Notes: generated by a model from the letters alone, not told the origin. Shown: positions 4,749-57,861, numbered from the stretch's first letter. The stretch is DNA of 64,000 nucleotides from Methanobacteriota archaeon (GCA_016874675.1 VGTL01000003.1:11346-75345); one strand, 5' to 3'. Numbers and translations: made by a program.

Positions 4749-5402
4749 CTACGGCTGCTTCTTCGGGACCCTCTGCCAGTCCTCGAGGAACCTCTCGATG
4801 CCCGAGGTCGTCAGGGGGTGCTTCGTCAGGAGCTCGAGCACCTTGAACGGCACGGTCCCGATGTGGGCGCCGGCCCGGGCCGCCTCGAGTACGTGTATGG
4901 GGTGGCGGATGCTCGCCACGATTATCTCGGTGCGGAAGCCGTAGTTTCGGTAGATCTGGACCGTGTCCCGGACCACGTCCATGCCGGTGGCGCCGATGTC
5001 GTCGAGCCGCCCGATGAACGGGCTGACGAACGTGGCGCCGGCCTTGGCCGCTAGCATCGCCTGGACGGGTGTGAAGACCAGCGTGAGGTTGGTCTTGATG
5101 CCGGCCCTCGAGAGAATCCTGGTCGCCTTCAGTCCCTCGGTCGTCATGGGTATCTTGACGGTGATGTTTTGGTGGACCTTCGAAAGCTCCCGGGCGTCGG
5201 CCACCATCTCGTCGCCCTTCATCGCGCAGGTCTCGACGCTTATGGGCCCGTCGACGATGCGGCAGATCTCGGCGATGAGGGCGGTGGGCTCGGCCCTCTC
5301 CTTGGCGATGAGGGTGGGGTTGGTGGTCACGCCGTCCACCAGGCCCCAGCTTAGGGCCTCCCTTATCTCGGCCAGGTTGGCGCTGTCGATGAATAGCTTC
5401 AT
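4749..5402 (-). CDS. fsa: Transaldolase / fructose-6-phosphate aldolase (TalC/FSA family), about 217 aa.
   Basis: [35 protein letters not shown]...[11 protein letters not shown]... is the short transaldolase/FSA family. Start at the internal Met (5402). Confidence 0.85.
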
Positions 5403-5484
5403 CCTCGGGCCTCCGCGGACCTCCGGTGTCCGGAAGCCCCAAAGCCATCGGCCCTCATTAAGCTTTTTACGTGGATGAATGAAT

Positions 5485-5665
5485 TTCGCCACTTTGTTAT
5501 TCAAGGCGCAAGGCGCAAGGCGCAGGGCGCAAGGGACGAGGGGGCAGGGGAAAAGGATCAAGGAACGAGGGTCAAGGGAGAAGGGGCAGGGGACAGGGGA
5601 TGAAGGACGGTTTCCATCGTCCCTGCGCCCTGCGCCCTGCGCCTTGACCTTTTCACGGCAAGGGT
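5485..5665. repeat. Composite palindrome: tandem GCGCAAGG / GGGCAGGG units, a spacer, then the complementary CCTGCGCC units.
   Basis: Read directly: ggcgcaaggcgcaaggcgcagggcgcaagg ... ccctgcgccctgcgccctgcgcc. Lies between the fsa 5' region and rpe. Confidence 0.7.
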
Positions 5666-5693
5666 TTTATGCCAAAACGCCGGTCGCCCGGGC

Positions 5694-6359
<666 letters not shown>

Positions 6360-6449
6360 TGCCCCCGCCCCGCGGCCTCTCGGACGGCCAAAAATATTTA
6401 TGCGCCGTCCGCCTTGCCACACCCTGAGCCCGTGCCAGGTGCACGCCGT

Positions 6450-6556
6450 CCCGGCTTAGCTCAGACTGGTGGAGCGGGGGACTGTAGTCGGTTCCCGGAG
6501 AGATCCGGTACCCCGCGGCAATCCTCAGGTCGCTGGTTCAAATCCGGCAGCCGGGA
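6450..6556 (+). tRNA. Intron-containing tRNA, probably tRNA-Tyr (anticodon GTA), with a roughly 34-nt intron after position 37.
   Basis: Acceptor stem CCCGGCT/AGCCGGG. D arm GCTC...GAGC. Anticodon stem GGGGA/TCCTC with loop CTGTAG|intron|A. T arm GCTGG-TTCAAAT-CCGGC. The intron contains a ccggagagatccgg hairpin. No encoded CCA. Confidence 0.6.
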
Positions 6557-6743
6557 CTTGTCAATTTTACAGCCCGGCTGCCGGATTTGTCCAAACCGGA
6601 GAAGAGCTGTGAGAACCTGAAAGAGCTCTTCGGGGCCGCGGACGGTCGAAGCTCTTCCAGGCCGTAGACACCTCCCCTGCGGCCTTTTGCGGCGCAGACG
6701 CCGAACATAGCGGGCGCCAGAAGAGATATCTACCACGGAGGGA

Positions 6744-7712
6744 ATGGGCCGCCTGGAAGGGCGATATCAGATGATCGATTTCGACGAGTTCGGCCCGGAG
6801 AAGATTCTCAACGTCTACGACCCGAAATCCGGAACGAGGGGGGTGGTCGTCATCGATAGTACGGCGCTCGGCCCCGGCAAGGGCGGCATCCGGATGACGC
6901 CCTCCGTCAACACGGGGGAGGTCGCCAAGCTGGCGCGCACCATGACCTGGAAGAACGCCCTGGCCGGGTTGCCCTTTGGCGGGGCGAAGTCGGGCATCAT
7001 TGCCGACGACAAGAAGATATCGGGGAAGAAGAAGTAAGAGATCGTAAGGGCCTTTTCCCGCGCGATCAGAATAATCTGCCCCGGGATGTACGTCGCCGCT
7101 CCGGACATGGCAATGGGCTCTCAGGAGATGCGCTGGTTCGCCGAGGCCAACGGGGACAGGCGCGCCTGCACCGGAAAACCCAAAGACCTTGGGGGCCTCC
7201 CGCACGAACTGGGAAGCACGGGCCTGGGTGTTTTTCAGGCCGCCCGGGTGGCCGCCCCCCATGCAGGCCTGAGGCTCGGCGATGCCACCGTCGCCGTCGA
7301 GGGGTTCGGCAACGTCGGTTTCTTCGCCGCCAGATTCCTGGCCGGGGCGGGTGCCAGGCTGGTCGCGGTGTCGGACAGCAAGGGTGTGGTCTGCAACGGC
7401 AACGGCATCGACTTCGAGAAGCTGGCCGAAGCCAAGGCGAGGACCGGCACTGTCGCGGGCTACGAGCCGGCGGACAAGACCTGCTGTGACAGTATTTTGG
7501 ATGTGAGATCGGACATCCTCGTAACCGCGGCCGTCCCGGACCTCGTCGGGCCGTCCGATGTCGGGCGGTTGCACTTCAAGCTCATCGTCGAGGGTTCCAA
7601 CACCCGGTCGGTGCTTGGGGATTCCAAAGGGCGCGGCCTGCCGCCGCGGCGGTGCGCCATGGACCTGGCGGTCAAACGCGTCCGGGAGCGGATGGGGAAG
7701 GAAGGCCCCTGA
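6744..7712 (+). pseudogene. Glu/Leu/Phe/Val dehydrogenase-like gene interrupted by an in-frame TAA (7035-7037) and C-terminally truncated.
   Basis: ORFs 6744-7037 and 7086-7712 are in the same frame. The read-through gives ...GGAKSGIIADDKKISGKKK*EIVRAFSRAIRIICPGMYVAAPDM..., a contiguous GDH N-terminal domain. GGIR, the catalytic Lys and the GFGNVG Rossmann motif are conserved. It ends about 100 aa short of a canonical GDH. Confidence 0.5.
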
Positions 7713-7808
7713 ACGCGCCCGGCCGTTATCCCGCTTCTGATATCCCGGCCGGACCCACCTCCATTCTGCGGAGCGGGAGAAGGGACCGGCCCCGTCGCCT
7801 GGCGGCCC

Positions 7809-9269
7809 TCAGTCCTTCAGTATTCTCTCCACCTCGTCCGCGTCGGCGTCGATAACATACCTGAGCCCGCTTATCTCGGCCGCCTCGCGGGTCAGCGCCA
7901 CGAGGTCGTCGCGTGTCATGTGCTTGAGGGCGAACTTGCGGCTCCCGCACATGAGCTGGCGCAGGCCCTGTGCAATCCTCTCCAGGTAGGTGTACAGGCC
8001 GAATGCGCCGGTGGGCACGTCCTTGAACTTCGGACCGAGCTCGGCGGCAAGTTCGGGCGCTGTGACGAAGATCTCCTCCGGGGTGGTGCCAAAGCGCTTG
8101 ACGTACACCGGGACCTGGCCCTCCTTCATCTTCCGGCCCAGGGTCTTCCCGACCATCGCCGCCGCGAGCGGCCCGCGGGCCATGCCCACGAGCTTGAAAT
8201 AGGGCGCGCCGATGGCGAGCCCCTTGAACACCTGGTCCTCGAAGGCGAAGCCGCCGGCGACCGCTATTTCCGGGATGTACTTCTTCTCCCGGGCCAGCGA
8301 GGAGAACTTGACGGCCCGGGCCAGGTCCGCCGGGCGGTAGGCGCCGGTCTTGAGGAACACATACTTCGCGCCCATGTCCCGGAGCTCCTTGACCCTCTTG
8401 AGGAATCCCTCCTTGGTCACCATCCCGACGCGCGAGTGGCGCTCGAACTCCTTGAAGGAGCCGTTCTCGAAGGCCTTGATCACCTCCGGGTCCGCGGGGT
8501 CCGGGTGCACAACGTAGCCCCGGCTCTTGAGGAGCTGCTCGGCGACCGGGCTCACCGGGCATCCCGGGCCCTCCACCACGCACTTGGCCCGGACCGAGGG
8601 GGCGCTTTGCTCTTTGACGAGGCCGCCGGCACCGGTCAGCGCCAGGACATCGCAGTCCGTCTTGACGATGTCCTCGGGGTGGAGGCGCGCCGGCCCCCGG
8701 AAATGGGCCAGGGACTGCCTCTCGTTTGGCGCCCTGGAGTGCTTGAGCATCTTTGAGATGTCGAGGCCCTTGGGGTCCTGGACCCCGCCCCAGTCGTCGG
8801 TGACGGCCACTACGGTCGCTCCCTTGTGCACCAGGTAATTGACCAAGGCCGAACCGGTGATATCGAAACCCTGGACGGCCACCCGGACGCCGGCCAGATC
8901 GGAGGGGGCCGGTTTCGAGTGCCGGGAGGATTGCAGGTAGGTCTCGGCGACGAGCCCCATCCCGAAGCCCGCCACGCCCAGCTCATAGGGAATCCCGCCC
9001 ATCTCCGGGGGCTTGCCGGTGGCGCCCAGAAGGTCCCCGACCACGTGCGCGAAGGCTTTCATCTCCTCCTGGCCGGTGCCGAGGGTGAGGTTGTCGAGGA
9101 CCAGGATGCCCTGCATGCTCGCTTCCGGGTCATAGACCTGGAGGACCTCCACGGGGCCCCATTCGTCGAAGAAGGCGGAAACGTTGGTATCCTCCAGCAC
9201 CCGGAGCAGGGACTCGGGCCGGTAACCGCCAATGGGAGTCACATCGCCGCCTTGTGTCATAGGCATCAC
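7809..9269 (-). CDS. Fusion protein: degenerate Glu/Leu dehydrogenase-like N-terminal domain plus C-terminal part of a glutamate-synthase (GltB) FMN-domain-like TIM barrel.
   Basis: The N-terminal half is paralogous to the 6744-7712 gene, but GGIR/Lys/GxGxxG are degenerate. The C-terminal ...IAVAGGFAFEDQVFKGLAIGAPYFKLVGMA...GTTPEEIFVTAPELAAELG... resembles the GltB domain-2 C-terminal region. Confidence 0.5.
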   Translation of the reverse strand: MMPMTQGGDVTPIGGYRPESLLRVLEDTNVSAFFDEWGPVEVLQVYDPEASMQGILVLDNLTLGTGQEEMKAFAHVVGDLLGATGKPPEMGGIPYELGVAGFGMGLVAETYLQSSRHSKPAPSDLAGVRVAVQGFDITGSALVNYLVHKGATVVAVTDDWGGVQDPKGLDISKMLKHSRAPNERQSLAHFRGPARLHPEDIVKTDCDVLALTGAGGLVKEQSAPSVRAKCVVEGPGCPVSPVAEQLLKSRGYVVHPDPADPEVIKAFENGSFKEFERHSRVGMVTKEGFLKRVKELRDMGAKYVFLKTGAYRPADLARAVKFSSLAREKKYIPEIAVAGGFAFEDQVFKGLAIGAPYFKLVGMARGPLAAAMVGKTLGRKMKEGQVPVYVKRFGTTPEEIFVTAPELAAELGPKFKDVPTGAFGLYTYLERIAQGLRQLMCGSRKFALKHMTRDDLVALTREAAEISGLRYVIDADADEVERILKD

Positions 9270-47436: not shown

Positions 47437-48549
47437 GTGCTCTGCCTGGGCCTCGAGAGCACCGCGCACACCATCGGCGCCGGCGTCGTCGACGGGAGGT
47501 GCCGGGTGCTCGCAAACGAGCTGGAGTCGTACGTGCCGCCGGAGGGGGGCATCCACCCGAGGGAGGCCGCCAACCACCACGCCGAGCGCGTGGTGCCGGT
47601 CATTCGGGCGGCCGTGGAGAGTGCCGGCGTGCGGTTCTCCGAGCTGGACCTCGTCTCGTTCTCCCAGGGGCCGGGCCTGGGTCCCTGCCTGCGGACCGGC
47701 GCCACGGCGGCGCGCTCGCTTGCGGTCTCGCTGGGATTGCCCATCATCGGGGTCAACCACTGCATCGCCCACCTGGAGATCGGCCGCGGCGCCACCGGCG
47801 CCCGGGACCCGGTCCTGCTCTACGTCTCGGGCGGGAACACGCAGGTCATCGCCTACATGGCGGGCCGCTACCGGATATTCGGCGAGACCCTGGACATCGG
47901 CGTGGGGAACCTTTTGGACAAGTTCGGCCGGGGCATGGGCCTGGCCTTCCCGGCGGGGCCCAAGATAGAGAAACTTGCCCTGGAGTACGCCGCGCAAAAC
48001 GAATCCGGGGGCCGGGTGCCGGGGGCCGGGTCGCCAAGCCCGTCGCCCGGCGCATCGATCGTCACCCGGCCCCCGGCACCCGGCCCCGTCCCGGCCCCCG
48101 GCACCCGGCACCCGGCACCCGGCTACCTCCCATTGCCCTACTCGGTCAAGGGAATGGACATCTCGTTCTCCGGGATACTCACGGCCGCGGAAGTGAGAAG
48201 GCGCGAGGGCGTGCCCGTCCCGCAGCTTTGCTTCTCGATGCAGGAGACGATCTTCGCGATGCTGGTGGAGGTCACCGAGCGCGCGATGGCCCACGTCGAG
48301 AAGGACGAGGTGGTCCTGGGCGGGGGCGTGGCGGCCAACGCCCGGCTGCGCCAGATGCTGGGACGGATGGCGGCCGACCGGGGCGCCAGGATGTTCGTCC
48401 CGGAGAAGCGCCTCTGCATCGACAACGGCGCGATGATCGCCTGGCTGGGCATCCTCATGCACCGGTCGGGCGTCCGGATGCCAGTCCGGGGGACCCGGAT
48501 TCGCCAGCGGTTCCGCACCGACGAGGTGGAGGTCGCATGGCGCGATTGA
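47437..48549 (+). CDS. kae1: tRNA N6-adenosine threonylcarbamoyltransferase Kae1, carrying a roughly 35-aa Pro/Gly-rich in-frame insertion.
   Basis: MLCLGLESTAHTIGAGVV...VNHCIAHLEIGR...LLYVSGGNTQV... The insertion ESGGRVPGAGSPSPSPGASIVTRPPAPGPVPAPGTRHPAPGY is encoded by a repeat element. Confidence 0.9.
   Translation: MLCLGLESTAHTIGAGVVDGRCRVLANELESYVPPEGGIHPREAANHHAERVVPVIRAAVESAGVRFSELDLVSFSQGPGLGPCLRTGATAARSLAVSLGLPIIGVNHCIAHLEIGRGATGARDPVLLYVSGGNTQVIAYMAGRYRIFGETLDIGVGNLLDKFGRGMGLAFPAGPKIEKLALEYAAQNESGGRVPGAGSPSPSPGASIVTRPPAPGPVPAPGTRHPAPGYLPLPYSVKGMDISFSGILTAAEVRRREGVPVPQLCFSMQETIFAMLVEVTERAMAHVEKDEVVLGGGVAANARLRQMLGRMAADRGARMFVPEKRLCIDNGAMIAWLGILMHRSGVRMPVRGTRIRQRFRTDEVEVAWRD
48020..48130. 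repeat. CCGGCACC-unit composite palindrome inserted in-frame within kae1.
   Basis: ccgggggccgggtgccgggggccgggtcgcc ... cccggcacccggccccgtcccggcccccggcacccggcacccggcacccggc. The same CCGGCACC unit array recurs intergenically at 56995-57045. Confidence 0.65.
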
Positions 48550-49193
48550 GGAAGGGCGCAAGGCGCATGGCGCAAGGCGCCGAGGCCGAGCTCCGCCTGG
48601 TGGACTGGATGGGCCGGAAGGCGGTCGCCAAGCGGCGGGTCCCCAAGCCCTACCGCCTCCCGGAGCTGGACCGCGCGCTGCGCCAGTCGCGCACGAGGCT
48701 CGAGGCGCGGCTTCTGCGCCTAAGCCGCCTGGCGGGCGTCCCGGCCCCGCTGGTCTACGACGTCGACCTCGCCGACGACTCCTGCACCCTGACCATGGAG
48801 TTCATCGCGGGCGAGCAGGCCAAGCGCCTGCTCAACCGCCTCCCGCTCCCGGCGGCCCGCAGGCTCTCGCGCCAAATCGGGGAGGCCGTCGGGAGGCTCC
48901 ATACCGGCGGAATAGTCCACGGCGACCTCACGACCTCGAACATGCTCCTGAGCGGCGGCACCCTCTACTTCATCGACTTCGGGCTGGGCGCAGCGACCGG
49001 GGAGCTCGAGGCCCAGGGGGTCGACCTGCGCGTGCTCAAGGAGGCCTTCGGCAGCACCCACGCCCACATCGGCCGGTGCTTCGACGACATGATGGCCGGC
49101 TACCGGGCCGCCTACCGAAGCGGCGCCGAGGCGGAGAGGCGCCTGAGGGAGATAGAGGGCCGGGGCCGCTATTCGGACCAGGTGGAAGGATGA
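48537..49193 (+). CDS. bud32: Bud32/PRPK-like atypical serine kinase (KEOPS subunit).
   Basis: ...GAEAELRLVDWMGRKAVAKRRVPKPYRLPELDRALR...HTGGIVHGDLTTSNML...LYFIDFGLG.... The start overlaps the kae1 stop. The first codons run through a GCGCAAGG repeat fragment. Confidence 0.8.
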   Translation: MARLRKGARRMAQGAEAELRLVDWMGRKAVAKRRVPKPYRLPELDRALRQSRTRLEARLLRLSRLAGVPAPLVYDVDLADDSCTLTMEFIAGEQAKRLLNRLPLPAARRLSRQIGEAVGRLHTGGIVHGDLTTSNMLLSGGTLYFIDFGLGAATGELEAQGVDLRVLKEAFGSTHAHIGRCFDDMMAGYRAAYRSGAEAERRLREIEGRGRYSDQVEG

Positions 49194-49774: not shown

Positions 49775-50749
49775 TCAGATTATCGTGAACGAGAGGCCGG
49801 CGCTAGCCCGGTTGCCCGCCCCGTCCTCGGCGACCAGGGTCAGGTTGTGGGCGCCCTGCGACCAGCGCATGTCGGAGGCGGTGGGCTTGACAAGGTAGAC
49901 ATTGTCGCGCAGGTAGTCGCTTTTCAGGTTTGAGTAGCTCCTGACGGGCTTGAGGAAGTGCTTCTCCGTGCTGGCATCCAGGGTGTAGTGGAAGCCGGAG
50001 ATCATCGCGTTGTCATGCACCCGGATGTAGATTGGCGTGCCCAGCGTGAGGTTGGTGCCGTTGACGATGGCGATGATATCGATGACCGGGGGCTCCGAGG
50101 CGACGATCTCGGTCTGGCGCTCCAGAGAGGAGGTCCGGCCGGTGCCGTCCTCCACCCGGACGATGTATCCGTACACGCCCGTCTCGGTGTAGTTGAGCTC
50201 CAGCTGGTGGAGCCGGGCGTCGATCTGGACGAAGTCGTCCCGCGTGACGGTCAACCCGTTGGGCGGCAGGACGAGCTCGGCAGTCATGGCGTTTATCCCC
50301 GAGTTCTCCATCACATCTATCGAGAGCCGCAGGCTGCCGCCCAGCTCCTGGTGCTTGGGCGTGCGGTCGACGAGCTGCGGGGGCGACAGGTCCATGATGG
50401 GCGGGTTGACGAGGAGTATCCAGAACGCGAGCCAGCACATGAAGTAGGAGAAGAAGAGCCCCGGCCACTTCATTCCCTCCATCTTGCGGGTGATGATGCG
50501 CAGGCGGTCCAGCATCGGCTTGAGCGCGAGCGCGGCCAGCACGCCGACCGCGAGCCCGATGTGCCACGAGCCGCTCAGGACGAAGACGGCCGTGGATATC
50601 AAGGCCGCGAGGAGCCCCCAGAGGGCCGCCACGAGGGTGCCCCTGGCGAGCTCGACCTCGCCGAGATAGTAGCCCTTCTCGTCGAAGGGCGGGGGGGCGA
50701 ACTCCTCCTCCTCGTCCTCCGCCGCCTTGCGAAGCTTCTTCTTGGCCAT
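49775..50749 (-). CDS. Hypothetical membrane protein: acidic N-terminus, three TM helices and an extracellular beta-rich domain.
   Basis: TM segments LVAALWGLLAALISTAVFVL, IGLAVGVLAALAL and LFFSYFMCWLAFWILLV. No family recognised. Confidence 0.4.
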   Translation of the reverse strand: MAKKKLRKAAEDEEEEFAPPPFDEKGYYLGEVELARGTLVAALWGLLAALISTAVFVLSGSWHIGLAVGVLAALALKPMLDRLRIITRKMEGMKWPGLFFSYFMCWLAFWILLVNPPIMDLSPPQLVDRTPKHQELGGSLRLSIDVMENSGINAMTAELVLPPNGLTVTRDDFVQIDARLHQLELNYTETGVYGYIVRVEDGTGRTSSLERQTEIVASEPPVIDIIAIVNGTNLTLGTPIYIRVHDNAMISGFHYTLDASTEKHFLKPVRSYSNLKSDYLRDNVYLVKPTASDMRWSQGAHNLTLVAEDGAGNRASAGLSFTII

Positions 50750-51836: not shown

Positions 51837-52319
51837 CTATTTCTTGTACCCGATCTTCCGCAGAAACTCCCGTCGCTCCCTGACATCGGCGTCGGTCTCG
51901 AGGCCCCGGCTCCTCTCGCCGTCGATGACGCCCAGGATGCCCCGGCCGCGCTCGTTTTGGGCGATTATCACGTCCACCTCGTTGGCCGTGGCGCAGATGA
52001 TTTGGCAGACCTCCGGAACCTCGCGCAGGGCGCGCAGGATGTTGATGGGGTAGGCGTCCTTCAGGGCGATGAAGAAGGTGTGGCCGGCCGAGAGTGCCAG
52101 GGCGTTCTTCGCCGCTATCCTCTTCATCTCCTCGTCGTTGCCCTCGACGCGCACCAGGCACTTCGTGGAGGCCTCGCAGAAGGCCACGCCGAACCTCGAT
52201 TGCGGCACGGCGTTCACCACCGCCTCGTAGACGTCCTCGGCGGTCTTGATGAAGTGGGACTGACCTATCACTATGTTCAGGCCCTCGGGCTTCTCTATCC
52301 TCACGCTGGCTAGCTCCAT
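51837..52319 (-). CDS. Small conserved archaeal protein resembling the adenosine-specific kinase family (PF04008-like).
   Basis: MELASVRIEKPEGLNIVIGQSHFIKTAEDVYEAVVNAVPQSRFGVAFCEAS.... Family assignment is from memory only. Confidence 0.35.
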   Translation of the reverse strand: MELASVRIEKPEGLNIVIGQSHFIKTAEDVYEAVVNAVPQSRFGVAFCEASTKCLVRVEGNDEEMKRIAAKNALALSAGHTFFIALKDAYPINILRALREVPEVCQIICATANEVDVIIAQNERGRGILGVIDGERSRGLETDADVRERREFLRKIGYKK

Positions 52320-52372
52320 CCGCTCACCGCCCTCCCGGAGGGGCCCGGCGGGATTTAAAACCATCCGCCCCG

Positions 52373-55129
52373 TCAGTTGAGGTAGCAGCGGGTGAGGCGC
52401 CCCTCGCGGTCCAGCCGGACGGCCCCGGCGGCGACCAGGTTGCGGATGTGGTAGTTCACGACCTGGCTGCTCACGCCCATCCTCCGGGCGAGCTCGTTTT
52501 GGGTTATCCCGGGCGAGGAGCGGACGTTCTCCAGAACTATCTCCTGGATGGCGCTGAACTCGCTCCTGCGGCGGGGCAGCAGGGCGGAATCCGGGTAGAA
52601 GCGCTTGAACATCCCGTCGCGCGTGGTTTTCACGTAGCCCTCCCTCTCGAGCACCCGCAGGTGGTAGGCCAGCGTCCCGTTCTTGAGCCTAAGCTGGGCC
52701 TTTATGGAGTTGTAGTGCTCCCCGGGGTTGGCGATTATGTAGCCGTGGATCTTGCCCCGCGTGTACTGGTCGAGCACCTCCTCCCGGCGCAGCTTGACAT
52801 AGACCGGCAGCAGGAGGTTGAGCATCGCGACCAGCACCACCTCGTTCCAGCCCAGGGCCAGACCGCCCAGCACCAGGAAGACCGCCAGGGCCATCCCCAG
52901 CCCCTCCATCGAGACCACGGGGCCTCCTCGGGGTGCGGGCTGGAGCGTGACGGTCACGGTCTGGGGCTCCGCCGAGACGCCCTCCCCGACCGCCTGTATC
53001 GTCAGTGTGCCTTTCGTGACCGCGCCCGTGGGGCCGGACGGGCGGAGCAACACCAGGAAGGTGTGGTTCTCGCCGGCGCGCAGGTCCCGGGGGAGCTCCG
53101 TCACCTGGTACGCGAGCCCCAGCTCCTCGGCGCCGGTGATCCTGAGCGTCACGTTGCCTATGTCGGAGCCGGTGCAAAGCACCGAGACCGGGAACGTGAG
53201 CCCCTCCCCGCCGGTGAGGGTGATGGACCGGTCCCGGGGGTGGACCCGGAGCCTCGGCCAAAGCTCGGCCGGGTCGAGGTCCCTGACCGTGACGAAGAGG
53301 ATTCTCTCCACGACCAGGTCCGGCCGCCCCAGCGAGCTGGCGCGCACGATGATGGGGTAGATGCTGACCGTCACCGCGCTCCCGGGGACAGTGATGTCCA
53401 GCCGCACCACCTTGAGCTCGCCGGGGGAGACCGGGACGAAGGAGGTGTCGAACCGGCCCCAGGCGGCGAAGTCGCCGGCGAGCGCCACGGTCGCCTCGTC
53501 GGGGGCGTTGCCGGTGTTCCCCAGCGTGAACAGCACCGTCAGGCGGTTGGAGACGAAGAGGTTGACCTCGCGGGCGGGCCCGCCCATCGGCTCGAGCTCC
53601 AGGCCGCGGACGGGCGCCACCTCCACCTCGAACACTAGCTCGCGCAGGGGGCCCAGCTCCGGGTCGGAGAGGCGGACCCTCACGAGGTGCGTGCCGGCGG
53701 GCGACCGGTTGAAATCCGGCGACGGCTCCACCCTCAGCACCGCGCCCGCGGAGGCGCCCGGGCGGACGGAGTCGGCCCGTTCGGGCTCGACCGAGGCGTC
53801 CCATCCGGCCGGCGCCTCCGAGACCTCGTACAGGACGGTCCGGGGGGCGTTGCCGGAGTTGGTGAAGCCGAACGGGAACTGGACCGCCCGGCCCGGCTCT
53901 ACCGGGTGGGGGGAGGGGAAGTGCTCCTGCGGCACGGTTATCCCCCTGACCGGGAGGACCGCAAGCCGGACCTCCTCGGTCCTCTCGAACTCTTTCCCGG
54001 GCGGGCCGGAGGAGCGCGCCGTGAGCAATGCGATGTAGGTGTCGCCCGCCAGGGCGTTGTGCGGCGGGGTCACGCGCAGGTCGGTGGAGGCCAGCCTCCC
54101 GGGGGCGATGGCCAGCCTGTCCTTGCCGAACCCGAATGTCCAGGAGGACGAAGGAAACACAGCGCGCACTCCCAGCGTCACGGTATCGTCGCCGTTCCCC
54201 AGGTTGACCACGGAGACGGTGAACACGGCCTGCTGCCCGGGGAGCAGGGAGGCCGAGGGGGGCGCGACCCCCAGGCTCAGGCCGAATGTCTGGTTCACCC
54301 GGAGGACTGTGGAGTTGGTGTCCTGGCGGCCCGGGTCGCGCTCGGAGGCGACGCTCATCGAGAGCTGCACGCCGTCCGTGCCGCCGCTGGGCCGGATGTC
54401 GAAGGGCAGCTGGACCCGCACCCTCTTGACGGCCCTCTCGCCGGGCGCCAGGGTCGCCGTCCAGCTGTCCTGGCCCTCCAGCGCCGGATTGATGCTGAGC
54501 ACGGATGCGGTTACCGAGGTCACGTTGAACCGGTCCTTGCCGTTCCCGGTATTGACTATCGTGAAATCGAACCGAAGCAGGTTGCCGGGATCGCCCGACT
54601 GCGGCGGCGGGGCGTCCAGGTGGACGCCGGCAAACTGCCTGATGTCGAGGTTGATGGAGATGGAGTTGGCGGTGGCGCCGGTCTCGTTGCCCCTGATATT
54701 GAACGTGTATCGCTTGGCCTCGGCGTCGGCGGCCGGGTACAGGACGAGAAATACGGTCCCCGTCTCGCCGGGGGAGAGCTCGAACGGCACGGATGGCAAG
54801 AAGTTGTACGACCAATTGTTCCCGACAGGCCAAGGGTACAGTTCGAGGATGAGAAAGCCCGAGCCTCCGTTGTTCTTGACCTGGAAGCCGAACGTCGCGG
54901 ACTTCTGCGACGTGGTCGGGTCGACATACTTCGTGGCGTTGACCGGGAGGATGGAGAGGATGTAGTCCGGCTCCCGCGCCGCGGCGCCGCATTCGCCCCC
55001 GCCGCCTCCCTCGCCGCCCCCGCATCCGGAGGCGGCCGCAAGCCCGGGCAGGAGGAAGAGGCCGGCCAGGAGCAGGACCCGCAGGGGCCCGATTCGCCCC
55101 CCCCGCCGGCCGCCGGATAGCCCTTTCAC
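52373..55129 (-). CDS. Membrane-tethered transcription regulator of 918 aa. It has a signal/lipobox-like N-terminus, about 700 aa of extracellular CARDB-like beta-sandwich domains, TM helices and a cytoplasmic tandem winged-HTH.
   Basis: N-terminus MKGLSGGRRGGRIGPLRVLLLAGLFLLPGLAAASGC. TM helix MALAVFLVLGGLALGWNEVVLVAMLNLLLPVYV. C-terminus ...KIHGYIIANPGEHYNSIKAQLRLKNGTLAYHLRVLEREGYV... and ...GITQNELARRMGVSSQVVNYHIRNLVAAGAV.... Confidence 0.6.
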   Translation of the reverse strand: MKGLSGGRRGGRIGPLRVLLLAGLFLLPGLAAASGCGGGEGGGGGECGAAAREPDYILSILPVNATKYVDPTTSQKSATFGFQVKNNGGSGFLILELYPWPVGNNWSYNFLPSVPFELSPGETGTVFLVLYPAADAEAKRYTFNIRGNETGATANSISINLDIRQFAGVHLDAPPPQSGDPGNLLRFDFTIVNTGNGKDRFNVTSVTASVLSINPALEGQDSWTATLAPGERAVKRVRVQLPFDIRPSGGTDGVQLSMSVASERDPGRQDTNSTVLRVNQTFGLSLGVAPPSASLLPGQQAVFTVSVVNLGNGDDTVTLGVRAVFPSSSWTFGFGKDRLAIAPGRLASTDLRVTPPHNALAGDTYIALLTARSSGPPGKEFERTEEVRLAVLPVRGITVPQEHFPSPHPVEPGRAVQFPFGFTNSGNAPRTVLYEVSEAPAGWDASVEPERADSVRPGASAGAVLRVEPSPDFNRSPAGTHLVRVRLSDPELGPLRELVFEVEVAPVRGLELEPMGGPAREVNLFVSNRLTVLFTLGNTGNAPDEATVALAGDFAAWGRFDTSFVPVSPGELKVVRLDITVPGSAVTVSIYPIIVRASSLGRPDLVVERILFVTVRDLDPAELWPRLRVHPRDRSITLTGGEGLTFPVSVLCTGSDIGNVTLRITGAEELGLAYQVTELPRDLRAGENHTFLVLLRPSGPTGAVTKGTLTIQAVGEGVSAEPQTVTVTLQPAPRGGPVVSMEGLGMALAVFLVLGGLALGWNEVVLVAMLNLLLPVYVKLRREEVLDQYTRGKIHGYIIANPGEHYNSIKAQLRLKNGTLAYHLRVLEREGYVKTTRDGMFKRFYPDSALLPRRRSEFSAIQEIVLENVRSSPGITQNELARRMGVSSQVVNYHIRNLVAAGAVRLDREGRLTRCYLN

Positions 55130-55237
55130 GCTCCCACCACCTTGAACAATCTGTCCGCGGACCTAATGAACATTGGCATTGGACCCTTCTGGGACCCCTT
55201 CTTATATCAATTGTTTAGTACGCGTTTTGATGATGGC

Positions 55238-55885
55238 TTAAGCCTTGTGGTGGGCATCTTGATGGACAACTGCCCCGGATGACCCGCGCGATATCTCCGC
55301 CTCCACGACGGCCCGATGGATGCGCGCCCGGCCGGCCCTCTGCTCCCAGTCCCTCTCCTGCACGTGCAGCTCCCCCGCCCCCGGGAATAGGAGGCCCACC
55401 TCCCCGGGCGTGAAGTAGTGGTGCCATATCCCGTCGCCGCGCTCGAAGGTCGCCGGCTCCACCTCCCGCCCCCTTCCGAAGCGGGCGTCGGCGGTCGAGA
55501 ACCCCTCGAAGAACAGCCTGCCCCCGGCCCGGACGACCCGGAGCATCTCGGAGGCGGCGGCCCTGCGGCCCTCCTCGGGGAGGTGGCCCAGCACGTGGCG
55601 GCAGAGCACCGCGTCGAAGCTCCCGTCGCGAAAGGGCAGCGCGGCGACCTCCGCCCGGACCAGCCGTCCGGGGCAGCGGCCGGCAAGGGCGCGCAGCGCC
55701 GAGCGGGCGATGTCCACGCCGACGACCGTCAGGCCGGGGAGGTGGCGCGAAAGGGGGACGAGCAGCCGGCCGCCCCCGCAGCCGGTCTCCAAGACAAGCG
55801 CGCCCTGCGGGAGGTCGGGCAGGACGACCGCACCGCTCCACGGCCGCCGCCGCGTTTCGTAGAAGCGCTCCCAGGCTTCTTTCAT
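55238..55885 (-). CDS. Class I SAM-dependent methyltransferase.
   Basis: VLETGCGGGRLL (motif I) ...GSFDAVLC...VVRAGGRLFF. Confidence 0.7.
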   Translation of the reverse strand: MKEAWERFYETRRRPWSGAVVLPDLPQGALVLETGCGGGRLLVPLSRHLPGLTVVGVDIARSALRALAGRCPGRLVRAEVAALPFRDGSFDAVLCRHVLGHLPEEGRRAAASEMLRVVRAGGRLFFEGFSTADARFGRGREVEPATFERGDGIWHHYFTPGEVGLLFPGAGELHVQERDWEQRAGRARIHRAVVEAEISRGSSGAVVHQDAHHKA

Positions 55886-56988: not shown

Positions 56989-56994
56989 CTACGT

Positions 56995-57045
56995 CCCCCG
57001 TCCCCCGTCCCCCGGCACCCGGCACCCGGCACCCGGCACCCGGAT
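56995..57045. repeat. Tandem CCCCCGT x3 plus CCGGCACC x4 array. Same unit as the kae1 insertion.
   Basis: cccccgtcccccgtcccccggcacccggcacccggcacccggcacccgg. Confidence 0.65.
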
Positions 57046-57461
57046 CAGGCCCCGCTGCCGGCCCTCTCCTTCAGGAGCGCCAGGAAGGAGGGCAGGTCCT
57101 CCACCGTCCGGCAGCCGCCCCCCGCCAGTCGCCGGAGCCGCGACCATATGAAGTCGTCGGATTCGACCCGGGCGTCCCGGAGCAGGCGCACCAGGCGGTC
57201 GTGGAGCTCCACGCCCTTGCGGTCCCAGTCCGTAAGGACGATGACCTGCCGGTACCTGCGGGAGAGCGCGTCGGTCCGGTCGACCAGGCTCTTTCCGCGG
57301 TTGAGCTTGACCACCTCCCCCTCGAGGCCCAGGGCGCGCAACGCCCCAACGTCCCGCTTGCCCTCGACCAGGACCGGGGATTCCAGGTTCGCCGCGCAAA
57401 GGCGCCCGAGCAGCTTCTCGAGCTCGTCGAGCTCGCGCTTGCGGTCAGCCATCCCTGCCAC
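57045..57461 (-). CDS. Small Toprim-domain protein.
   Basis: ...VLVEGKRDVGALRALGLEG...VIVLTDWDRKGVELHDRL... is a Toprim E...DxD pattern. Confidence 0.5.
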   Translation of the reverse strand: MAGMADRKRELDELEKLLGRLCAANLESPVLVEGKRDVGALRALGLEGEVVKLNRGKSLVDRTDALSRRYRQVIVLTDWDRKGVELHDRLVRLLRDARVESDDFIWSRLRRLAGGGCRTVEDLPSFLALLKERAGSGA

Positions 57462-57861
57462 CGTCCAGACGCGCGGCCAGCCGGCCCAGCGCCTCTTGGG
57501 GCCCGAGCCCCTCCACCTCCACGCCCCTCCACCTGTCGGCCCTCCCGGAGGTGATGCGGAGGGAGCCCTCCTTGACGCCCAGCACGGAGGACAGCACCTC
57601 GAGCAACTCGGCGTCAGCCCGGCCCCTCTCGGCCCTCGAGCCCACGGCCACCCTTATCCGCTTCCGCCAGCGGTCGTACGAGAGCCTCCCCGGCCGGCCG
57701 GAGCCGGGCTGGACCTCGACGAGCAGCAGGCACCCGCCCGGGGCGGGCAGCACGGCCGCCTCCACGCCCCCGCCCTTTTCGGTCGCCCCGCCGGCCCTGG
57801 TCGCCGGGGGGTCCCATGCACCCTTGCACCCTTGCACCCTTGCACCCTTGCACCCTTGCAC
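57445..57861 (-). CDS. DUF167/YggU-like protein. The N-terminal codons derive from a GCACCCTT repeat array.
   Basis: ...LLLVEVQPGSGRPGRLSYDRWRKRIRVAVGSRAERGRADAELLEVLSSVLGVKEGSLRITSG.... The ORF's first 15 codons read KGARVQGCKGA from (aagggtgc)n. True start uncertain. Confidence 0.45.
   Translation of the reverse strand: MQGCKGARVQGCKGAWDPPATRAGGATEKGGGVEAAVLPAPGGCLLLVEVQPGSGRPGRLSYDRWRKRIRVAVGSRAERGRADAELLEVLSSVLGVKEGSLRITSGRADRWRGVEVEGLGPQEALGRLAARLDGGRDG

Follow-up and report, generated by a model that had tools for sequence, protein, structure and literature searches.

We describe a gene that joins a large ectodomain of surface-protein type, through a single transmembrane (TM) helix, to a C-terminal pair of domains of the winged helix-turn-helix (wHTH) type. 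It lies in a 64,000-nucleotide stretch of DNA from a Methanobacteriota archaeon (GCA_016874675.1 VGTL01000003.1:11346-75345; hereafter the window, with a G+C content of 65 to 73%). The open reading frame occupies positions 52373..55129 on the minus strand and encodes 918 amino acids plus the stop codon, with a GTG start and a Shine-Dalgarno-like GGTGG/GGGAG 4 to 12 nt upstream. We document the architecture, fold, inferred topology, selection pattern and modular family of the encoded protein. On balance, and with modest confidence, we take it to be a type I single-pass, one-component transmembrane transcription regulator, with its DNA binding, signal, mode of transmission and targets all predicted.

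The fusion of ectodomain and wHTH domains is real and not an assembly artefact, because 12 full-length orthologues (45 to 69% identity) from independent metagenome contigs keep the entire architecture. With the window protein, which is 100% identical to entry P0001 of the protein collection, they form an orthologue set of 13 sequences. An AlphaFold2 model of the full-length protein, built on an alignment of 82 sequences, has a mean predicted local distance difference test score (pLDDT) of 85.3. It shows, in order, a disordered N-terminus (residues 1-51), six beta-sandwiches (52-733), two helices (744-758 and 763-780) and two H1-H2-H3-wing units (788-846 and 860-917). The last 189 residues, modeled separately (pLDDT 85.0), give the same picture. 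The original prediction, made from the DNA alone, had placed extracellular domains, a TM region and wHTH units in one reading frame at 52373-55129, and Pfam, AlphaFold2 and the orthologues all bear this out. Automated annotation already calls such proteins 'uncharacterized membrane protein/predicted transcriptional regulator'. We found no second copy of the tandem-wHTH module or of the ectodomain within the window.

The tail is a tandem of winged helix-turn-helix domains

The C-terminal 135 residues fold as two wHTH domains (pLDDT 80-97). The first, wHTH1 (aa 784-850; 52580..52780, minus strand), is an ArsR-like domain of the HTH_HVO_0163_N family (PF24266), matched over aa 790-847 with 63 bits against a gathering threshold of 31 (2.8e-17). 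It consists of H1 (788-800), H2 (806-813), a recognition helix (817-829; NGTLAYHLRVLERE) and a wing (833-846) carrying K842 and R843, modeled at pLDDT ~84-97. The second, wHTH2 (aa 860-918; 52376..52552, minus strand), consists of H1 (860-871), H2 (877-884), a recognition helix (888-900; SQVVNYHIRNLVA) and a wing (904-917) carrying R908, at pLDDT 89-96. Over aa 865-906 it matches HTH_24 (55.5 bits, cut-off 21.9), MarR_2 (40.8, cut-off 27) and HTH_20 (39.4, cut-off 27), at E values from 4e-15 to 6e-10. The two C-terminal wHTH units of the original prediction are therefore supported both by Pfam and by canonical folds; the AlphaFold model that had been proposed as a check, and that might have failed to give a wHTH fold there, gives it twice.

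At the level of sequence, the relatives of this tail are almost all DNA-binding regulators. The wHTH1 domain finds PDB entry 5duk with the single sequence (1.8e-5) and with a profile (2.2e-10). A profile of the whole module, compared with the PDB, returned DNA-binding regulators in 32 of 33 matches (5duk, then MarR, SlyA, AdcR, ZitR, ArsR and Lrp). The lone non-regulator, ribosomal protein eS25, was a weak match, and neither ScpB nor ESCRT-II was among the 33. Superposition of single domains gave 2.0 Å over 69 columns with ArsR (6j05), 1.0 Å over 64 with MarR (3bpx) and 0.8 Å over 55 with CadC (3f72). Family-wide, 90 to 100% of residues are Lys or Arg at R791, K810, K834, K842, R843 and R908, positions in the recognition helices and wings (K842 99%, R843 98%, R908 99%).

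ArsR/SmtB metalloregulators are marked by Cys/His metal motifs (the alpha3 CXC or the alpha5 site) and by a dimerising alpha5 helix. The module does not pass the corresponding family models (NF033788, HTH_metalloreg, 30.8 bits versus 55; HTH_5, 21.5 versus 22) and contains no metal-site cysteines, its sole Cys being C915. In the AlphaFold2 models no helix, dimerising alpha5 or other, lies beyond either wing. Pfam gave no match of the window protein to Trans_reg_C, even at E<=1, and none to HAMP.

A single predicted membrane pass places the tail in the cytoplasm

The TM helix (aa 743-761, GLGMALAVFLVLGGLALGW; 52847..52903, minus strand) is rich in glycine, with five Gly in 19 residues. G745, G756 and G760 are invariant, the last two as a G756xxxG760 motif, and the conserved N762-E763 follows directly (GWNE). 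AlphaFold2 models residues 744-758 as a helix, within a longer hydrophobic block that spans aa 735-776 of the Kyte-Doolittle profile. Next comes a juxtamembrane segment (aa 762-783, NEVVLVAMLNLLLPVYVKLRREE; 52781..52846, minus strand), a hydrophobic helix that closes with the signature of the family, PLYxKL(K/R)(K/R)E.

We counted charges, spacers and domain layouts in 80 family members from named genomes. The common pattern is a TM helix of ~20 aa, a conserved Glu, a spacer of 14 to 16 aa and PLYxKL(K/R)(K/R). E763 is conserved in 76 of the 80, K779 is Lys or Arg in 100% and the distance from E763 to the Tyr of PLY is 14 to 16 aa in every member. Because the spacer is this short, and holds charged residues in 46 of the 80 (for example, TEVGKYKFL), it cannot cross the membrane; judged by these sequences, the juxtamembrane hydrophobic helix cannot be a second TM pass. 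Of the 'TM helix or helices' in the original prediction, one TM helix thus stands, and a juxtamembrane helix takes the place of any second.

Charge is distributed asymmetrically about the TM helix. The 15 aa before it contain on average 0.64 K+R and 2.0 D+E, and the 30 aa past the conserved Glu contain 4.9 K+R. This bias, the charged spacer of many relatives, the existence of short relatives with neither TM helix nor signal peptide (P0058, P0069 and P0078, some perhaps truncated gene calls) and the enrichment of N-x-S/T sequons in the N-terminal part together indicate a type I single-pass protein (N-out/C-in) with a predicted cytoplasmic wHTH pair. The original prediction also put the wHTH domains inside the cell, and named the opposite topology as a result that would overturn it; all of the evidence is for C-in.

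That opposite topology would require a two-helix hairpin at aa 743-777, which would leave the wHTH pair outside the cell in an extracellular, non-transcriptional role. The hydrophobic block of ~35 aa with a polar N-E midway could be read this way, and AlphaFold2 does split it, with little confidence (pLDDT 54-68), into helices 744-758 and 763-780. We nevertheless rejected the hairpin, which we consider most improbable, because of the short spacer, the charges found in relatives and the positive-inside bias. The second segment would have only 14 to 16 aa in all 80 relatives, with K, R, D or E inside it in 46, and K+R are strongly enriched past the block and not ahead of it. The wHTH domains are basic (net charge +4 for wHTH1 and +3 for wHTH2) and the ectodomain acidic (-12), and the short homologues of the module without signal peptide or TM helix also speak against an external tail.

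The ectodomain is an array of six beta-sandwiches

The N-terminus carries a signal peptide (aa 1-34; 55028..55129, minus strand) with a basic n-region, an h-region (LRVLLLAGLFLL) and PGLAAAS, ending at a predicted cleavage site; Kyte-Doolittle values exceed 1.6 across aa 13-38. The LAAASGC string and hydrophobic N-terminus noted in the original prediction are present (aa 13-38), but its lipobox-like interpretation fails. Cys36 is absent from 12 of 12 orthologues, with no alternative Cys aligned there, and the orthologues instead keep the basic n-region and an h-region ending in PGLAAA. We rejected a lipoprotein because Cys36 is not conserved, and the signal peptide is probably of the Sec/signal peptidase I type. 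A Gly-rich, low-complexity linker follows (aa 35-51, GCGGGEGGGGGECGAAARE; 54977..55027, minus strand), which varies in sequence and length between orthologues; pLDDT is below 50 for aa 1-51.

Beyond the linker lie six tandem beta-sandwich domains of ~112 aa each (52931..54976, minus strand), of NEW3/NPCBM_assoc and 'choice-of-anchor T' type and enriched in sequons. Their boundaries are 52-166 (D1), 167-281 (D2), 282-393 (D3), 394-507 (D4), 508-619 (D5) and 620-733 (D6), with a strand pattern modeled mostly at pLDDT >90. Within the N-terminal 730 aa, Pfam NPCBM_assoc/NEW3 matches in two stretches (5.5e-20; 71.8 bits versus a cut-off of 24.4), alongside FixG_C, Ig_VWA7 and DUF7507, and the NCBIfam 'choice-of-anchor T' model passes marginally (70.9 bits versus a cut-off of 70). 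The original prediction spoke of about 700 aa of CARDB-like domains. The beta-sandwich array is indeed there, but strict CARDB membership (PF07705) was rejected at 15.3 bits, under the gathering threshold of 22.7, and it is NEW3/NPCBM_assoc that passes. Domains D2 to D5 are related repeats, with hhalign probabilities of 96 to 97.5% for D2-D3, D2-D4, D3-D4 and D3-D5, and 79 to 89% for D2-D5 and D4-D5; D1 and D6 are more divergent. A Foldseek search with the full model found only generic Ig-like arrays (hydin, alpha-2-macroglobulin and cadherin), and we dropped any specific ectodomain function based on structure.

The window protein contains 10 N-x-S/T sequons, compared with 4.7 +/- 2.0 in shuffled sequences. 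A two- to threefold enrichment holds in all 13 orthologous sequences and lies in the N-terminal part, confirming the beta-sandwich domains rich in N-x-T sequons of the original prediction. Positions N64, N105, N272, N659 and N688 are conserved; the tail has a single conserved sequon, N817-G-T, which belongs to the recognition-helix motif. Judging by this pattern, N-glycosylation of the ectodomain is probable.

The same ectodomain also occurs without the tail. Residues 41-672 are homologous to HTH-less paralogues, in which extra CARDB domains, a TM helix and a low-complexity tail form the end, and one genome contig holds both types. At locus L003, an HTH-less paralogue of this kind (positions 5204-7888; 894 aa, the same ectodomain plus CARDB) lies immediately upstream of the orthologue.

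A portable cassette in Thermoplasmatota

Mean pairwise identity among orthologues is 91% for wHTH1, 77% for wHTH2, 77% for the TM helix and 73% for the juxtamembrane helix, versus 44 to 57% for the ectodomain domains. Because identity there is far above that of the ectodomain, the membrane-proximal and cytoplasmic parts are the most constrained.

An exhaustive profile search with the module over 1.84 billion representatives (50% clustering) gave 11,608 matches at E<=1e-3, of which 1,188 reached E<=1e-30 and cover the whole module. Among the matches listed, the module sits at the extreme C-terminus in 150 of 150, in proteins of 177 to 1568 aa. A scan of 185,579 species genomes found 92 module loci, all in metagenome-assembled genomes (MAGs) of Thermoplasmata/Thermoplasmatota/Methanomassiliicoccales, some of them deposited as 'Methanobacteriota archaeon'; single MAGs hold up to four copies. 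Of 80 genome loci, 79 encode a variable region of 250 to 1300 aa, then a TM helix, then the module. An N-terminal hydrophobic segment is present in 71 of those 79, the remainder being mostly 5'-truncated reading frames. The ectodomains joined to the module include PKD x3, NEW3, FG-GAP plus He_PIG, DUF11/DUF7507, NEW3 plus CARDB, and a NosD beta-helix. At L001, a 411-aa PKD-PKD-TM protein with an HTH_HVO_0163_N plus HTH_24 tail (614-1849) is encoded ~6 kb from the orthologue.

Since the module is fused to unrelated ectodomains, and the same ectodomain is also found without HTH domains, we conclude that the TM helix and tandem-wHTH module form a portable cytoplasmic cassette carried by ordinary surface-protein ectodomains. 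The modules of the metagenome orthologues are roughly 80 to 95% identical to that of the window. The best identity in the species genomes is 51 to 55%, and because no species representative has a module more than 55% identical, the lineage of the window seems not to be represented among the 185,579 reference genomes. Our literature search found no paper describing the module family or the architecture.

A conserved upstream region and a constant neighbor

The 117-bp non-coding region upstream of the gene (55130..55246, minus strand) contains candidate promoter and operator sites. These are a block AAGGCTTAAGCCATCATCAAAAC (also written ACCACAAGGCTTAAGCCATCATCAAAACGCGTAC) at 55224-55246, which includes the perfect palindrome GGCTTAAGCC at 55235-55244; a TATA-like TTGATATAA at 55202-55210; a block CCAATGCCAATGTTCATTAGGTCCG (also CCAATGCCAATGTT.AT.AGGTCCGCGGACAG) at 55158-55182; and a palindrome GTCCGCGGAC at 55153-55162. 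Two 10-bp perfect palindromes thus flank the TATA-like box. Over five orthologues, the ~100 nt upstream have a mean identity of 83%, versus 58% for third positions of the coding sequence; in the same five, the ectodomain-coding DNA is 70% identical and the coding sequence overall 72.5%. The element is kept at L087 despite a different upstream gene. From this pattern, the upstream block looks like a tightly constrained promoter with candidate operator sites.

We searched for a regulon by means of this element. It is unique within the window, none of the 80 distant family loci has it, and every occurrence of the upstream block in a metagenome scan precedes a relative of the focal gene. Two further candidates were rejected. 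A structured 5' leader or known RNA had no Rfam match and an RNA-folding z of -0.05. GGTCC direct repeats with 11/22-bp phasing, considered as an operator, occur at 5.4/kb, were equaled in count by 18 of 100 shuffles and have GGGCC as their first copy in L001.

Synteny around the gene is of a housekeeping kind: DUF1805, S-adenosylmethionine (SAM)-methyltransferase, the focal gene, an adenosine-specific kinase (PF04008) and a PNP/UDP phosphorylase. The PF04008 gene (51837..52364, minus strand; Pfam 1.8e-71) begins 8 nt past the focal stop codon. In each of the seven orthologue contexts it follows the focal gene directly and is encoded on the same strand. Its positions elsewhere are L001 10792-11274, L003 10876-11361, L084 4298-4780, L085 3842-4324, L086 4368-4865 and L087 4592-5074. 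Co-transcription of the two genes is likely because the pairing persists at L087, where the upstream gene differs. The neighbor may be an operon partner or a regulatory target.

The site-2-protease-type partner suggested in the original prediction did not appear: we found no protease or other universal partner linked to the gene in the seven orthologue contexts or beside the 80 family loci, and a crude motif search of the window revealed no site-2 protease or rhomboid motif. Recurrent neighbors reflect subfamily synteny (PNP at 18 loci, M20 peptidase at 13, KaiC-like at 10). The KaiC-like ATPase genes (PF06745, 1e-34 and 2e-29), which are absent from the window, adjoin 10 of the 80 family members (L015, L019, L038, L043, L051, L054, L058, L068, L071 and L078) and apparently fall into two length classes. 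This adjacency may tie to the signaling roles proposed for archaeal KaiC-like ATPases.

Other features of the window are recorded here for completeness. A 324-aa membrane protein (49775-50749, minus strand; L003 12325-13278) keeps a syntenic position close to the focal gene and has a weak EMC6_arch match (1.5e-4, below cut-off) and a C-terminal Ig-like region. A Kae1-Bud32 fusion (tRNA t6A), recognized by sequence motifs only, lies at 47437-49193 on the plus strand. GC-rich microsatellites occur at 48051-48141, 56990-57062 and 57813-57860. The heptamer (CCCGGCA)n lies inside the Kae1-Bud32 reading frame, in the linker between its two halves, where it translates to PAPGTRHPAPG, and recurs between the 3' ends of nucleotidyltransferase and Toprim reading frames. 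A separate octamer (CCCTTGCA) is repeated ~6 times at 57813-57860.

How the protein may act

In the mechanism that we favor, the signal peptide would direct export of ~680 aa, comprising the six NEW3/CARDB-like domains, through the Sec pathway. The ectodomain, probably N-glycosylated, would stand out from the membrane like a stalk. Related genomes encode HTH-less surface-protein paralogues that it resembles and with which it may associate. The conserved Gly-rich TM helix (GxxxG, N-E) and the juxtamembrane helix would join it to the cytoplasmic part, where two ArsR/MarR-type wHTH domains in one chain are so placed that, paired within the molecule as a pseudo-dimer, they could bind DNA. Ectodomain state, set by a ligand, by surface contact or by envelope or oligomeric status, would be relayed by the TM and juxtamembrane helices, or else by clustering, and altered DNA binding at the membrane would then shift transcription. 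As targets, the strongly conserved promoter of the gene itself and the co-directional gene for adenosine kinase are the first candidates.

Several observations weigh against such a regulator. The best whole-module Foldseek matches are ScpB, ESCRT-II Vps22/25, SelB and RPC34 (E 4e-5 to 1e-3), in a class that also includes TFIIIC and PF0095; the superposition is loose (root mean square deviation, 8 to 20 Å), and this tandem winged-helix fold class has protein- and RNA-binding members as well. Between the juxtamembrane helix and wHTH1 there are only ~6 residues, modeled at low confidence, which leaves the module very near the membrane on a tether far shorter than that of ToxR or CadC. Among paralogues with unrelated ectodomains, wHTH1 keeps a near-invariant recognition helix (NGxLAYHLxxLE). 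This is not expected if each paralogue has its own operator; it would suit paralogues that have a target or a protein partner in common, or that bind DNA without specificity. In the Foldseek search, the ectodomain has no recognizable ligand-binding, ligand-pocket or enzymatic domain. Finally, because the conserved upstream element is confined to this locus, no regulon can be defined.

The near-invariant recognition helix and the very short tether keep alive the main rival, in which the protein is a structural coat or adhesin protein whose tandem winged-helix tail serves as an adaptor to a cytoplasmic protein or as a non-specific nucleoid/DNA tether. We regard this as unlikely, although a serious contender. 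An ectodomain homologous over aa 41-672 to HTH-less paralogues that resemble ordinary surface proteins, one of them directly upstream at L003, would suit such a role, as would 'choice-of-anchor T' and the other ectodomains of the family, which are typical of surface proteins. ScpB and ESCRT-II, both among the best structural matches to the whole module, use tandem winged helices for protein binding, and near-invariant recognition helices beneath differing ectodomains suggest a common partner. However, the sequence-level relatives are DNA-binding regulators of ArsR/MarR/Lrp type and not adaptor winged helices, with the weak eS25 match as the only exception, and the superposition on ScpB and ESCRT-II is poor (10 to 15 Å; TM-score ~0.3). 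The arginines conserved in the wings and the basic residues of the recognition helices are typical for DNA contact, and the TM-less versions of the module resemble ordinary small regulators. A different departure from the favored mechanism, which we find distinctly unlikely, is regulated intramembrane proteolysis, in which the ectodomain would be shed and the Gly-rich TM helix cut, freeing a soluble tandem-wHTH regulator by a Notch-like logic. The TM helix is unusually conserved (77% versus 44 to 57% in the ectodomain) and its five glycines, three of them invariant and followed by N-E, would destabilize a helix. Release from so short a tether would ease access to DNA, and the TM-less versions suggest that the module may work untethered. 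Such a helix is compatible with intramembrane proteolysis but not diagnostic of it: an invariant GxxxG fits helix-helix packing equally, and the TM sequence is conserved within the orthologue group only and not family-wide. Nor does a protease gene lie beside the focal gene or the 80 family loci, and the crude search for protease motifs in the window was negative. Site-2 proteases prefer type II (N-in) helices, and type I substrates suit presenilin-like or rhomboid proteases. Because the protein is type I, a site-2 protease, as the original prediction had proposed, is the wrong class of partner on general grounds, and a presenilin-like or rhomboid enzyme would be needed.

A broader proposal builds on the transcription regulator that we favor. 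The TM helix and tandem wHTH may be the portable output cassette of a Thermoplasmatota-wide system of outside-in signaling, in which dozens of differing ectodomains of surface-protein or adhesin type (NEW3/CARDB, PKD, FG-GAP, DUF11 and beta-helix) report contact, glycan binding or envelope state straight to the chromosome, either from the membrane or after Notch-like cleavage. The family would then be an archaeal set of type I receptor-transcription factors standing in for two-component systems. We put this forward as speculative and, in this full form, unlikely.

Relation to known systems

Transmembrane transcription regulators (TTRs) are defined by a predicted DNA-binding domain and at least one TM region, with ToxR, TcpP and CadC as examples (Demey et al. 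2023, PMC10269533). They are computationally common in archaea, at ~4 per genome, with single-pass proteins as the commonest class (PMC10269533). The window protein falls within this operational definition, having a TM helix at aa 743-761 and predicted DNA-binding domains above cut-offs. As in other TTRs, one chain holds the extracytoplasmic domain, the lone TM helix and the cytoplasmic wHTH part, with no kinase or receiver domain. ToxR and CadC, however, are type II proteins with an N-terminal OmpR-type (Trans_reg_C) domain and a C-terminal periplasmic sensor, whereas the window protein has the reverse orientation and a signal peptide predicted to be cleavable. It carries a C-terminal tandem of ArsR/MarR-type wHTH domains in place of one Trans_reg_C domain, and its ectodomain is a 680-aa adhesin-like array, unlike the compact sensor of ToxR and CadC.

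ArnR of Sulfolobus acidocaldarius reportedly has an N-terminal HTH, a HAMP-like region, C-terminal TM helices and almost no extracellular part. Compared with it, the window protein shows a reversed domain order, no HAMP match and a huge ectodomain; ArnR is crenarchaeal, whereas the present family belongs to Thermoplasmatota. The window protein is thus neither of the ToxR/CadC type nor of the ArnR type, differing in orientation, DNA-binding domain and sensor. ArnR and ArnR1 are archaeal membrane-bound one-component HTH regulators that have been studied experimentally (PMC6396743). The statement in the original prediction that such regulators are rarely characterized in archaea holds in that the experimental work found in our literature search mainly concerns these two; computationally, TTRs were already known to be common there (PMC10269533).

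Of the separate parts of the protein, wHTH1 aligns over 63 to 70 residues with the 77-aa Thermoplasmatales protein 5duk, including the PG.H and L.YHL..LER motifs. Proteins of the HVO_0163 type (PF24266) and 5duk are small and soluble, whereas wHTH1 is the first half of a membrane-tethered tandem. HVO_0163 itself has been labeled 'ArsR-type' and is induced by hypochlorite (PMC10294847); our literature search found this one paper, and nothing beyond the label. PF0095 of Pyrococcus furiosus (PDB 2quf/2qlz), ScpB, ESCRT-II, SelB and RPC34 also have two winged helices per chain. The likeness is at the level of fold only (11 to 18% identity), none of them is membrane-anchored and several bind protein or RNA. 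In Notch, a eukaryotic type I receptor that sets free a transcription effector, and in RsgI, an anti-sigma factor of Clostridium with carbohydrate-binding modules outside the cell, a repeat-rich or glycan-binding ectodomain is coupled by one TM helix to a cytoplasmic domain that controls transcription. Their logic is similar, without any relationship in sequence or fold, and RsgI is a type II protein that acts through a sigma factor.

Significance

How archaea sense their surroundings is poorly understood. The family described here wires a near-invariant cytoplasmic cassette to interchangeable surface domains, in an orientation opposite to that of ToxR and CadC, and we consider this modularity its most interesting aspect. 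If the cassette binds DNA, it would connect the cell surface to transcription in uncultured archaea by a route open to direct tests, and would supply a compact, modular design for synthetic receptors. If it instead binds a protein partner or tethers DNA, the family would reveal that the envelope of archaea is joined to the cell interior in a way not recognized before.

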